Shown: positions 28,193 through 49,922 of the stretch, piece by piece
How the letters are laid out: the number at the start of each line of letters is the position of its first letter
Numbering within the stretch: the stretch's first letter is position 1
Source: Candidatus Tayloriibacteriota bacterium
GTDB lineage: Bacteria; Patescibacteriota; Minisyncoccia; Phycocordibacterales; UBA10002
Direction: 5' to 3'
Length of the DNA stretch: 64,000 nucleotides
NCBI GenBank assembly: GCA_009694955.1
Contig: SIBZ01000001.1
Coordinates: forward strand, 63 to 64,062
Notes under the pieces: generated by a model
Told to the model about the DNA's origin: nothing
Databases searched by the model: none
Seen by the model: the letters and a program-made list of their open reading frames with translations, nothing else
Translations under genes and position numbers: made by a program

Positions 28193-28368
28193 CTCAATAT
28201 TGTAGTATTTCTTTTGAATTTCGCCTAATCTAGCGTATTATTTCGTCTAGCGAGGATCGCCGCCCAAACTTCTTAGTTTGCATGGCGTCCGACCTGCCCG
28301 CCATGGGCTTTGGCAGGCGGGGCGAAGATGAAATATAAGGGTTTAATACCGCTTTTATTTCAGACACC

Positions 28369-28432
28369 GCTTTCGTGGTGAAATGGACCCCAGTAGCACT
28401 ACAAAGCATAGCTACGGGGTGCGTATCACACC
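28369..28432 (+). pseudogene. tRNA 5'-half remnant interrupted in the D-loop by a palindromic element
   Basis: GCTTTCG-TG-GTGA-AATGGA-[ccccagtagc...gctacggggtgcg]-TATCAC, parallel to the tRNA-Arg 5' half just downstream. Confidence 0.5.
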
Positions 28433-28435
28433 GAC

Positions 28436-28507
28436 GCGCCTATGGTGAAATGGATATCATACCTGCCTTCGAAGCAGATGTTCCAGGTTCGAATCCTGGT
28501 AGGCGCA
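28436..28507 (+). tRNA. tRNA-Arg(TCG)
   Basis: GCGCCTA/TAGGCGC acceptor stem, anticodon loop CT-TCG-AA, T-loop TTCGAAT; CCA not encoded. Confidence 0.9.
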
Positions 28508-28636
28508 AAGTGACTAAGGAAGCACGGGGTGCTTCCGTCCAGAATTCGAAGCCCAATTGAGCATTTTTTGAGGCTTTTGCGAGAAAAAGGCCAATCGGGG
28601 TACTGAAGCTGTAAGCTTCGAATCCTGGTAGGCGCA
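28508..28636 (+). mobile_element. tRNA-trailing structured element, copy A
   Basis: Ends with a 20-bp direct repeat of the tRNA 3' end (28617-28636); contains a degenerate antisense copy and conserved stems; mobility is inferred. Confidence 0.65.
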
Positions 28637-28736
28637 TAAAACGAAGAAGGAAACATCTCAATTTTGCGTAAACACCGATTTCTGCTATCCTGTTCTCTGT
28701 TGTTAGCTGTAGGTCGTGCATTGTTAGTTAGCGTCT

Positions 28737-28810
28737 GCGGGTATGGTTTAGTGGTAGAACACGTCCTTGCCAAGGACGGGATTCGGGTTCGATTCCCGGT
28801 ACCCGCACCA
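28737..28810 (+). tRNA. tRNA-Gly(GCC)
   Basis: GCGGGTA/TACCCGC acceptor stem, cgtcc-TTGCCAA-ggacg, encoded CCA. Confidence 0.95.
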
Positions 28811-28965
28811 AAATCGAACGAAGTGAGTGTTGGTCGGGTAGAAAGCGCTGGGAGCGCTTTCGGCCGGAATCGAAGCCTGTTTGAGCCTTTTGTAGAGCCG
28901 ACGGCGAATACAAAAGCCAAATAGGGTACTGAAACTGTAAGTTTCGATTCCCGGTACCCGCACCA
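28811..28965 (+). mobile_element. tRNA-trailing structured element, copy B
   Basis: 23-bp direct repeat of the tRNA 3' end (28943-28965); antisense copy tggtcgggta..ccggaatcgaa. Confidence 0.65.
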
Positions 28966-28995
28966 AGTAATTCTAAAAAAGACACCGTGCACAAC

Positions 28996-29024
28996 TGTGG
29001 ATAAGACAGTGGATATGTGCATAA
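28996..29024 (-). promoter_or_regulatory. DnaA-box-like cluster
   Basis: tgtggataa 28996 (perfect), agtggatat 29008, tgtgcataa 29016. Confidence 0.5.
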
Positions 29025-29036
29025 AAGACAGGAAAA

Positions 29037-30056
29037 GTTTCAGGTGAAAGCAATGCTCAAATTTTAATTATACGGCCTACTCTAGGCCTTTTAAAAAGAC
29101 AAAGCCATAAAAGTCATCAAGTTTCACGTGAAACTAGTACTCATTTTGCAATAATTTATGGATAAGTCAATTCTTCTCCAGGTTGGGGTAAAAATCTTTC
29201 TGAAGAATATAGAGGGTCGGTATCTACTGCTCAAGCGGTCACCTGTTAGGTACCCGAACGTGAAAAATTTCATGGATATACCCGGCGGGAGGATTATCCC
29301 CGGAACCCCTCTCTTCGAAAACATTAGACGCGAAGTTTTTGAGGAAACAAAGCTAACCGTTCTTGGGGAGCCAAAGTTAATCGGTGCTCAAGACATTATC
29401 AGGCTTCCTGAGAAGCACATTGTGAGGCTTACGTTTATCGGAGAAACTTCCGGTACTCCAGTGCTCGATGAAGAACATCTCGAGTTTAAATGGGTGACGC
29501 TTGGGGAAATGAAAAACGAACAAGAGCTTGATGAGTTTACACGTGAAATCTTGGAAAAGAATTTTAATGGATAAAATATTTGTTTCAATCTCGATAGCCG
29601 TAGCCTAAGGAAACAAATATTTTCTGTGTTACAAAAGTGGGGAAGACACAAAAAGTCGGTTCGCTTGGTGAAGAACTTGTTGTAAGGTTTCTTATGAAAC
29701 GAGGGTATTCAATTCGCGACCGAAACTACCGAAGGCCGTGGGGTGAGTTGGATGTTGTTGCAGTGAAGAAAAATAAAATTCATTTTGTTGAGGTAAAAGC
29801 TTTAAGCTCCAAGGTTGAAACTTGTTTACCTCGTAGCAAGCCGAGTCTGCGATGTTCTACTGCTAGGGTTTCAGATGAAACAAAAGGCAACGTTTCATCT
29901 GAAACATTCGAGCGCGGAAAGGCGTTGGTGTACATACGGTCTAAGATAAAGAAGGATCGCTTCAGAGCAGAGGATAATGTTAATGCTGAAAAAATGAAGC
30001 GTTTAAGCCGTATAATACAGACCTATTTAAATGCGGAACATGTTTCATCTGAAACA
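29037..30056. other. Cluster of seven parS-like palindromes
   Basis: GTTTCACGTGAAAC at 29121; variants at 29037, 29536, 29687, 29868, 29892, 30042. Confidence 0.7.
29158..29574 (+). CDS. NUDIX hydrolase
   Basis: DIPGGRIIPGTPLFENIRREVFEET. Confidence 0.9.
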   Translation: MDKSILLQVGVKIFLKNIEGRYLLLKRSPVRYPNVKNFMDIPGGRIIPGTPLFENIRREVFEETKLTVLGEPKLIGAQDIIRLPEKHIVRLTFIGETSGTPVLDEEHLEFKWVTLGEMKNEQELDEFTREILEKNFNG

Positions 30057-30195: not shown

Positions 30196-30231
30196 AAAAT
30201 TGTCGTAAGTGTGTTAGGATGTTTTGACTGT

Positions 30232-30302
30232 CGGGGCGTAGTGTAACGGTAGCATTCATGCTTTGGGAGCATGCGGTCCGAGTTCAAATCTCGGCGCCCC
30301 GA
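30232..30302 (+). tRNA. tRNA-Pro(TGG)
   Basis: CGGGGCG/CGCCCCG acceptor stem, catgc-TTTGGGA-gcatg, T-loop TTCAAAT. Confidence 0.92.
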
Positions 30303-30304
30303 AT

Positions 30305-49028: not shown

Positions 49029-49099
49029 GCGGGATTAGTTTAATGGTAGAACTGCAGTTTTCCAAACTGTAGGCGGGAGTTCGATTCTCCCATCCCGCA
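49029..49099 (+). tRNA. tRNA-Gly(TCC)
   Basis: GCGGGAT/ATCCCGC acceptor stem, gcagt-TTTCCAA-actgt, T-loop TTCGATT. Confidence 0.92.
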
Positions 49100-49264
49100 T
49101 ACACAAGTAACCGGCCCAAGGCCGGTTTTTTTGTGCGGGATAGAAGATGTGGGACATCTTCGTGGGAGAATCGAAGCCTCTTTGAGCATACTTTCGAGCC
49201 TCTGCGAAGAAAGCATCCAAAGAGGGGACTGAGTCTGTAAGACTCGATTCTCCCATCCCGCATA
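49100..49264 (+). mobile_element. tRNA-trailing structured element, copy C
   Basis: 21-bp direct repeat of the tRNA 3' end (49244-49264); antisense tgcgggat..tgggagaatcgaa. Confidence 0.65.
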
Positions 49265-49295: not shown

Positions 49296-49327
49296 TACAA
49301 TATATTTGCGGTCGCAAATATATTGTA
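49296..49327. repeat. 32-bp palindrome upstream of the PaaX/Cas2-like gene
   Basis: tacaatatatttgcg-gt-cgcaaatatattgta. Confidence 0.9.
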
Positions 49328-49337
49328 TACTGAAGGG

Positions 49338-49922
49338 ATGCAGATACAGACGGGGAAAAGAAAAAGTACGAAAGAGAGAAAAGCGCGTATCGCTACTGTA
49401 CAAAAAGCGGTACTCTTTTCTCTGGCGGCCGCAGGAGGATTAACCCTTGCGTTACTTGCTCCAAATGCTCTTCAAGTACTTGAGCAATTTGGCTGGGTAA
49501 AGACAAAACGCAACTTTCGGCAGACAATCAATATTTCAGTTGAACGCTTGTCTCGTGCAGGATTGATTATTAAAGATAACGACGGTCACATCAACCTTAC
49601 CAAAAGAGGGGAACAACGTCTTTCTGAATTGGAAAGGATGCACTACCGAATTGATCAACCGAAGAGGTGGGATAATAAATGGCGTTTAGTCAGTTTTGAT
49701 ATAAAAGAAACCCGAAAAGAGGTACGGGAATTATTACGCTCGACACTTCAAAGTGTCGGATTCGTGCGTCTTCACCGGAGTGTCTGGGTATACCCGCACG
49801 ATTGCGAGGATTTTCTCTCACTTCTTAAGGTCGATTATCATATCGGCGTCGAAGTTCTCTATATTATCGCAGATTATATCGAGAATGACGGCTGGCTTCG
49901 GAAGCATTTTGACCTGTCGTGA
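49338..49922 (+). CDS. PaaX-like protein (wHTH plus Cas2-like ferredoxin-fold domain)
   Basis: INLTKRG, KRWDNKWRLVSFDIKE..R..LQSVGFVRLHRSVWVYPHDC. Confidence 0.85.
   Translation: MQIQTGKRKSTKERKARIATVQKAVLFSLAAAGGLTLALLAPNALQVLEQFGWVKTKRNFRQTINISVERLSRAGLIIKDNDGHINLTKRGEQRLSELERMHYRIDQPKRWDNKWRLVSFDIKETRKEVRELLRSTLQSVGFVRLHRSVWVYPHDCEDFLSLLKVDYHIGVEVLYIIADYIENDGWLRKHFDLS

Follow-up and report, generated by a model that had tools for sequence, protein, structure and literature searches.

Gene-less cassettes matched to the tRNA genes that they follow: an order-wide family in Patescibacteriota with signs of mobility

Behind three of the tRNA genes in the window – our name for the whole stretch of 64,000 nucleotides analysed here, from a Candidatus Tayloriibacteriota genome – lie copies of a short cassette devoid of genes and adapted to the tRNA that it trails. 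These cassettes belong to a family that is real, order-wide and apparently undescribed in the literature searched, and that is of the same kind as the tRNA-linked repeats (TLRs) of Escherichia coli and other non-autonomous hairpin elements. They are probably mobile as folded single-stranded DNA, and probably enter the T-loop of a tRNA gene with a replacement 3' end, for which an enzyme would have to act in trans. Mobility as such is well supported; the single-stranded route and the guidance by DNA are what we infer. Directly observed are the layout, the covariation, the tracking of the host tRNA, an occupancy that is patchy, a single site that is precisely empty, a sister form and insertion by IS1111. 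New in this analysis are the sister form, which stands away from tRNA genes, and a clade of IS1111 elements which enters the scaffold at GTACTG.

The cassettes of the window

An earlier note, made from the letters alone, had described one layout behind tRNA-Arg(TCG), tRNA-Gly(GCC) and tRNA-Gly(TCC), and on re-reading the window all three copies are where it had placed them. Their parts are the following (window positions).

28436..28507 (+): tRNA-Arg(TCG); T54-A73 (28488-28507) is read as the 5' arm of the left hairpin, H0
28510..28516 (+): Arg copy, antisense (degenerate) to the 3' strand of the acceptor
28518..28536 (+): Arg copy, hairpin H1, with flanking A and G
28539..28550 (+): Arg copy, antisense segment for the T-stem with its T-loop, 11/12
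28551..28599 (+): Arg copy, core stem P2
28600..28620 (+): Arg copy, GTAC junction and hairpin H3 (GTA loop)
28617..28636 (+): Arg copy, trailing direct copy of 20 bp, taken to be the old tRNA end that was displaced
28488-28616: Arg unit missing in strain X4, 129 nt
28737..28810 (+): tRNA-Gly(GCC)
28811..28874 (+): Gly-GCC copy, left part, with a linker of the GNA mini-hairpin type; acceptor antisense 28831-28840, H1 28841-28861, antisense T-arm 28863-28874 (10/12)
28875..28946 (+): Gly-GCC copy, P2 (28875-28925), GTAC and H3 (28930-28946)
28943..28966 (+): Gly-GCC trailing direct copy, running from T54 to CCA and one A beyond
30231..30303 (+): tRNA-Pro(TGG), an empty site in the window; the corresponding site holds a cassette in relatives G023 (L207) and G037 (L196)
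49029..49099 (+): tRNA-Gly(TCC)
49100..49175 (+): Gly-TCC copy, left part, its linker with a terminator-like stem (49109-49127); antisense acceptor 49134-49141, H1 49143-49161, antisense T-arm 49164-49175 (12/12)
49176..49246 (+): Gly-TCC copy, P2 (49176-49225), GGAC and H3 (49230-49246)
49244..49264 (+): Gly-TCC 21-bp trailing direct copy, from T55

The antisense T-arm and T-loop had been said to match the tRNA ahead of it, and each does: the positions that agree with its own tRNA number 11/12 in the Arg copy, 10/12 in the Gly-GCC copy and 12/12 in the Gly-TCC copy. The hairpins that split the antisense segment are found at 28518-28536, 28841-28861 and 49143-49161, the sense copies of the 3' end measure 20 bp (Arg), 24 bp (Gly-GCC) and 21 bp (Gly-TCC), and tRNA-Pro at 30231 is without a cassette. 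Compared with shuffled sequences the three copies fold with z-scores of -2.6, -5.0 and -6.7. TTGAGC and GAG..GCGA, which the earlier note took to be invariant, are like the GCC that follows TCGAA common to the three window copies but not to the family, in which the near-invariant parts are the GTA loop, the final A and the letters GAA, GTAC and CTG. As for TCGAA, it is the complement of the T-loop and no part of the scaffold: it reads TTGAA where the tRNA has A57 (18/18).

Overlapping contigs from an independent study (X3) span 28327-29300 and show 0 differences from the window; a single contig among them runs through the entire Gly-GCC element, and the duplications are therefore not artefacts of assembly. 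At gathering score Rfam recognizes only the four tRNAs in the window; at E<=1, Rfam 15 again yields tRNAs only, and no ribozyme, intron or riboswitch, at five cassette loci.

Extent of the family

Family elements measure about 100-170 bp across the order. A covariance model of the cassette core (R1, 47 sequences) has 16 matches in the source genome at 53-88 bits, after which there is a gap down to 23 bits; the 16 strong copies, some in arrays, trail 11 of the 40 tRNAs called by ARAGORN. Matches occur in 30 of 40 relatives, with 0-26 copies per genome, these counts being lower bounds (108 candidates scored per genome), and several relatives that are 99-100% complete have no cassette. The motif GTACWGNNNNTGTAAG is present in 216 of the 401 genomes of the order, with about 1000 matches, where the reversed motif used as a control gives 0-2 matches in a minority of genomes. 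Outside the order a slightly tighter motif produced three single matches in 197 genomes, which is the level of the control. The first, loose pattern applied to the genome collection had given at least 44 filtered motif matches among the 120 loci listed. Named records with true copies are of Parcubacteria/Paceibacteria type (Lloyd-, Kaiser-, Taylor-, Zambryski- and Nomurabacteria), and some carry a Saccharibacteria label.

At 89 fetched loci, R1 has 121 matches, 93 of them with a tRNA or tmRNA of 17 kinds on the same strand at most 450 nt upstream; the remaining 28 include ends of intron-split tRNA-Asn genes, contig ends and the non-tRNA form. By eye, the cassettes at L163, L193 and L223 stand behind an apparent 3' exon of such a tRNA-Asn. 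Decayed and nested copies are common, and tandem arrays occur. At G000:C22:9630-9721 there is a tRNA with a long variable arm, called Ser with anticodon ACT (A34), which recurs in relatives at L066, L097 and L214. At G000:C38:25791-25865 (-) ARAGORN calls Phe(AAA) for a short tRNA-like gene whose acceptor stem is of the Ser type.

Covariation and tracking of the host tRNA

The stems had been said to covary, and the 121 matches agree: in an alignment fitted to the model itself, 91.5% of cells pair, and covariation reaches 0.71, compared with 0.20 after shuffling and at most 0.17 in slid controls. For three H3 pairs this is circular, since the seed was filtered on them; the P2 pairs were not pre-selected in the seed alignment.

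Tracking of the host tRNA by the antisense arm, as claimed in the earlier note, was followed in 68 of the 121 matches, each of them the first to come after a tRNA whose T-loop could be parsed, and it is borne out. Positions 59-65 agree 7/7 in 35/68 cognate comparisons against 18/3942 non-cognate ones, and the antisense of the acceptor, sought in the same window search, reaches at least 7/8 in 32/68 against 138/3942. Position 57 is tracked as well (G:C 45, A:T 18, G:T 5, A:C 0), and so are the alleles of isoacceptors. Where the tRNA and its trailing copy are discordant, the arm agrees with the tRNA 13 times, with the copy once and with neither three times. Mismatches of the arm comprise 19 G.T, 4 A.C and 38 others, and this excess of G.T over A.C indicates that it is the tRNA-sense strand which folds. 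Beyond position 73 the arm pairs with the genomic trailer in 52 cases, with CCA in 7 and with neither in 6. An arm that follows both the tRNA and its genomic trailer points to fold-back of the gene strand and not to a guide aimed at mature tRNA; a retroelement model with a primer-binding site on the mature tRNA was rejected on this ground. H1 is present in 57/68, with its A..G flanks in 50 of these 57. The last bases of H3 mirror the T-loop, reading TCAA in 14 of 18 TCAA tRNAs, and H3 ends in GAGA or AAGA in 17/68. The trailing copy is identical at 12-13 of 13 positions in 51/68 of the relatives' copies.

Occupancy of tRNA genes

An empty site had been named as a check, and strain X4, about 99% identical (4 differences in 335 nt), supplies it: it lacks the Arg element, the gap being exactly 129 nt (28488-28616), with 20 letters that fit either side. 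This absence could also be the product of homologous recombination between the 20-bp repeats. Within the genus the Arg-TCG site is filled in 2/18 genomes and the Gly-GCC site in 3/17, with one remnant besides; orthologous tRNAs are mostly empty, and occupancy varies both within the genus and within a species. At the empty sites of G013 and G010 the flanks match the sequence that lies 3' of the trailing copy, so that the trailing copy is the old tRNA end.

The cassettes of G023 behind tRNA-Glu(TTC) and tRNA-Lys(TTT) have cores that are 92% identical and arms that fit 12/12 each, and the two tRNA tails differ at 9 of 15 positions. In G033 a left part that is 99% identical is found at both Leu-CAA and Leu-TAG, with an arm that is CAA-like at both, while at L201 H3 has been lengthened by a perfect inverted copy. 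Some of these patterns could have come about without transposition, by deletion between direct repeats and gene conversion.

A sister form away from tRNA genes

The same P2-GTAC-H3 scaffold, preceded by a short left hairpin, accounts for weak R1 matches in the source genome (C37, C52, C22 and C34), and a pattern search found 29 copies away from tRNA genes in 17 of 41 genomes. The left hairpin of this form holds the A-[stem]-G module which is the H1 of the tRNA form. Sister copies interrupt other palindromic repeats, empty paralogues of which are present in the source genome. Their left border is G|T in 24/24 parsed copies (the T is fixed by the pattern; the preceding G is informative in 23/24). 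The four nucleotides after the loop vary, yet they pair with the 5' arm of H3 in 22/24. In the 13 copies where it could be measured (11 had no measurable host hairpin), the host hairpin resumes 2 nt (6), 1 nt (3) or 3-5 nt (3) after the loop, one being unresolved, and none of the 13 shows a long target duplication. It follows that the mechanism makes no 20-bp duplication and that, the left hairpin being short here, the antisense arm corresponds to the arm of an end hairpin. The direct repeat of the tRNA form would accordingly consist of a tRNA end borne by the element and of the end that it displaced, with a junction between G53 and C56.

The source genome also has a palindromic repeat, GTCATTCC..GGAAT, with 34 strand matches, in the window at ~6970, ~37895 and ~51990 and outside it on numerous contigs; two of its copies are split by the non-tRNA form. 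At L181:1430-1640 and at L158 the non-tRNA form stands right after the D-arm in tRNA-like pseudogenes.

Search for a mobilising enzyme

Around about 100 cassette loci, no mobility gene recurs within 1.2-1.5 kb, and the open reading frames nearby are syntenic housekeeping genes; the check for a linked recombinase that had been proposed ties none to the cassettes. In the other direction, candidate mobility genes have four R1 matches around them in 89 loci. A PaaX/Cas2-like open reading frame directly follows the Gly-TCC cassette (window 49323-49922, +) and does not recur beside other copies.

Several candidates were weighed, and none emerged as the mobiliser. Y1 transposases are present in 31/44 element-rich genomes (70%) as against 236/401 overall (59%) and absent from the single-contig genome G217, which has 12 motif matches; the scaffold lies near 1 of 61 Y1 loci. 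The two Y1 genes of the source genome, RAYT-like and found at L130 (C27) and L131 (C14), have palindromes of their own, one of them GTAG-tagged, which are unrelated to the cassette. IS110 is present in 5/41 genomes. Large serine recombinases, first suggested by an island on contig C42, were rejected: they are absent from G037, G033, G025, G032 and G034, present in element-free genomes and anti-correlated with cassettes; one of 30 recombinase loci has an R1 match, behind a neighbouring tRNA, and the C42 island was inserted separately, at the very 3' end, and displaced a truncated cassette by 4.4 kb. Small GIY-YIG genes occur in all 41 genomes, with one weak R1 match in 30 loci. As to carriage by phages, of four patterns run against viral contigs three found nothing and the fourth had 2 matches, attributable to chance.

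These genes have peculiarities of their own. In G000, large serine recombinase genes on C42 (L121:212-1774), C13 and C38 converge on tRNA-Glu(CTC), Leu(GAG) and Leu(CAG), respectively; the C42 gene ends in codons antisense to the tRNA and has behind it an inverted copy of the 3' end of the gene. A different, long trailer is common to L352 (Arg-TCG in G018), C13 Leu-GAG and C38 Leu-CAG of G000 and is linked to serine-recombinase islands. GIY-YIG genes lie just upstream of Leu-GAG, Cys and Ala tRNAs (L200:4200-4500, L212:830-1220, L225:1420-1750), between two copies of the 5' half of that tRNA, and form a separate type of tRNA-targeting element; a tRNA or tmRNA stands within 1.5 kb of 14/30 GIY-YIG loci.

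An IS1111 clade inside the cassettes

In G013 the cassette behind tRNA-Ile contains an IS1111-type element (PF01548 and PF02371; L397) with sub-terminal inverted repeats and a right end of ~190 nt. Relatives of this element were collected at 25 metagenome loci, the upstream flank being visible in 22; the cassettes that contain its recombinase gene follow tRNAs for Ile, Gln, Ser, Glu, Lys and Pro. The insertion point is the scaffold sequence G/ATACT|G in 18 of the 22 (15 distinct, one being the G013 locus), with the reservation that some short IS contigs, in which halves of different cassettes are joined, may be wrongly assembled. The guide at the right end reads GTAC(T/C)G at cassettes; four of the 22 loci lie elsewhere, and there the guide, visible in three, changes with the target. 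This fits the bridge-RNA model (passages of PMC11208160). The clade at L397 and L406-L430 is a natural bridge-RNA system programmed to the GTACTG of the cassette.

The earlier note had likened the cassette itself to a bridge RNA. Were the cassette RNA-guided in this way, it would be either the guide or, in its IS1111-containing form, an autonomous parent, as the presence of the recombinase gene within cassettes behind six kinds of tRNA might suggest. We hold this to be very improbable: IS1111 has sub-terminal repeats and a target-tracking guide of its own, which makes it a parasite of the cassette and not its parent, and the clade is found in 3 of the 401 genomes of the order only, and not in the source genome. 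The cassette, moreover, has no linked recombinase gene, its mini-hairpins are predominantly of the DNA-type GNA class, and it matches one target strand, whereas bridge RNAs pair with both (passages of PMC11208160).

Folded DNA, RNA device or remnant

In the cassettes, GA-nn-GNA-nn-GA mini-hairpins number 18 on the sense strand, 0 on the opposite one and 0.28 after shuffling; GNA triloops number 80, 25 and 39, and GNRA tetraloops, mildly enriched, 35, 17 and 23. The loop of H3 is TGTAA in 94/121, a GTA loop whose closing pair varies. Triloops of the GNA type are a signature of DNA; G.U-type pairs, for their part, fit RNA as well as DNA. The proposal of a non-autonomous tRNA-targeting element has gained from arms that track the host tRNA, covariation that is real and an empty site that is precise.

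The probable course of events can be sketched. The unit would consist of a left hairpin, P2, GTAC and H3. For tRNA copies, the left hairpin would have as its 5' arm the tRNA from T54 to its 3' end and as its 3' arm the antisense arm; since that 5' arm is the tRNA's own end, insertion would be silent and the old end left as the trailing copy. Entry would take place in the T-loop, between G53 and C56, with a replacement tRNA 3' end, and the 5' arm of H3 may pair with the first 2-4 target bases past the junction. Once a cassette had moved to a different tRNA, its antisense arm would be matched anew by fold-back copying and by selection for pairing. A bolder version, which we regard as possible but tentative, makes of the cassette a DNA-guided element whose ~20-nt arm and H3 arm pick the cognate tRNA gene on single-stranded DNA, the guide being rewritten by fold-back copying and the reaction carried out by an unrecognised enzyme of the host or in trans; TLRs would then be an independent or distant case.

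Other explanations call for comparison with this folded-DNA element. The cassette might be an RNA device, a T-loop intron or maturation switch in which the arm occupies the upstream 3' end, leaving the trailing copy to complete the cloverleaf; a switch of this kind had been considered in the earlier note. The geometry is there in the predicted equilibrium fold: for all three window precursors, with RNA as with DNA parameters, the antisense arm lies on the upstream tRNA end and the 5' acceptor strand of the tRNA on the trailing copy, with 6.5-6.8 of 7 pairs predicted. The tRNA-sense strand is also the one that folds, and TLRs behind 5S rRNA in E. coli are transcribed and processed (passages of PMC8144298). 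The trailing copy is dispensable, however: it falls below 12/13 identity in 17/68, has 11-14 extra nt in 6 and is separated by ~1.3 kb from single tRNA genes where IS1111 has inserted. A terminator-like stem precedes the arm in 9/32 linkers, the majority of orthologous tRNAs are empty, the same scaffold occurs in intergenic hairpins without a tRNA, and Rfam has no ribozyme or intron match at E<=1. A switch is, then, unlikely.

Less probable again, in our opinion, is an origin as stationary remnants: att scars of tRNA islands, the inverted arm arising by quasi-palindrome copying and the spread being due to unequal crossover or gene conversion. Integrase islands typically show a duplication that begins within the T-loop, the source genome has serine-recombinase islands at tRNA ends, L201 displays fold-back copying, and L199 and L201 could be gene conversion. 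Yet scars would hardly share a fixed, covarying scaffold (0.71 against 0.20 shuffled) over about 17 kinds of tRNA and tmRNA, and both the separate C42 insertion, with its cassette 4.4 kb away, and the rarity of recombinase loci with a model match (1/30), recombinases being anti-correlated with cassettes, speak against this origin. We give a similarly low rating to a domesticated family of small RNAs or terminators with a host function, rarely mobile in the manner of TLR-like sRNAs. The design of TLRs is alike, three TLRs act as sRNAs that bind Hfq and CsrA in vitro (passages of PMC8144298), and more than half of the order has retained the family; against this stand its absence from several relatives of 99-100% completeness, the turnover of occupancy within genus and species and the frequency of decayed and nested copies.

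With hundreds of variants, an empty allele, a sister form and an IS1111 parasite at hand, the idea that tRNA-trailing repeats are mobile, self-matching DNA becomes testable. If it is true, targeting would follow a new principle, in which a long DNA guide that can be rewritten serves to insert silently into tRNA genes, and the IS1111 clade offers a natural bridge-RNA system aimed at a safe-harbour motif in these genomes.

Comparison with known systems

Islands that integrate into tRNA genes use tyrosine or large serine recombinases, and CTX-type elements have a folded attP. The cassette resembles such islands in its probable entry at the T-loop, its replacement 3' end and the displaced old end, and it resembles the CTX-type attP in that an inverted copy makes a duplex site from one strand. 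It differs from islands in being a unit of 130-165 bp without integrase or cargo (the integrase gene between two copies of the tRNA end is absent) and in having a sister form in non-tRNA hairpins. Casposons, too, target tRNA 3' ends and leave direct repeats of 14-15 bp (passages of PMC6614799); the cassette, unlike them, has no terminal inverted repeats and no open reading frame, and its sister form is without the long duplication. With respect to IS110/IS1111, the IS1111 clade targets the scaffold as IS621 targets REPs (passages of PMC11208160), and the titles of references point to the cases of IS4321-TIR and IS1111-attC; the cassette itself has neither a DEDD recombinase nor guide loops for two strands.

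The single-strand elements of the HUH/Y1 type (IS200/IS605 derivatives, and REP/REPIN with RAYT) come closer: they share with the cassette end hairpins, a tetranucleotide at the hairpin foot, pairing into the target, precise absence and the lack of a long duplication (passages of PMC6006769). The tag is GTAC or ATAC in the cassette and GT[AG]G in REPs (passages of PMC6006769). The cassette also differs in pairing with the target 3' of the junction, in its 20-nt target-matched arm and in that no Y1 gene could be linked to it.

The earlier note recognised no described family. For the cassette family itself this stands, within the literature searched; it does not extend to the TLRs of E. coli, whose design is related and includes an antisense piece. 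The tyrT 178-bp repeats (RtT, RF00391) have been known since 1978, function and origin lacking, and passages of PMC8144298, the source for this, hold no evidence of mobility. In TLRs the antisense is short and unsplit, and there is neither H1 nor the P2-GTAC-H3 scaffold; R1 scores at most 6.3 bits on TLR units, and RF00391 finds nothing in the source genome at E<=1. Like the cassettes, TLRs stand directly behind tRNA genes, in tandem arrays, and end in a copy of the 3' end of the upstream gene, of 18-19 bp where the cassette has 20-24 bp (passages of PMC8144298). The K-12 tyrV/tyrT units, finally, have what the cassettes have, GNA mini-hairpins and a stretch of 8-10 nt antisense to the end of the T-arm, a stretch which may already be described in subscription papers or supplements.
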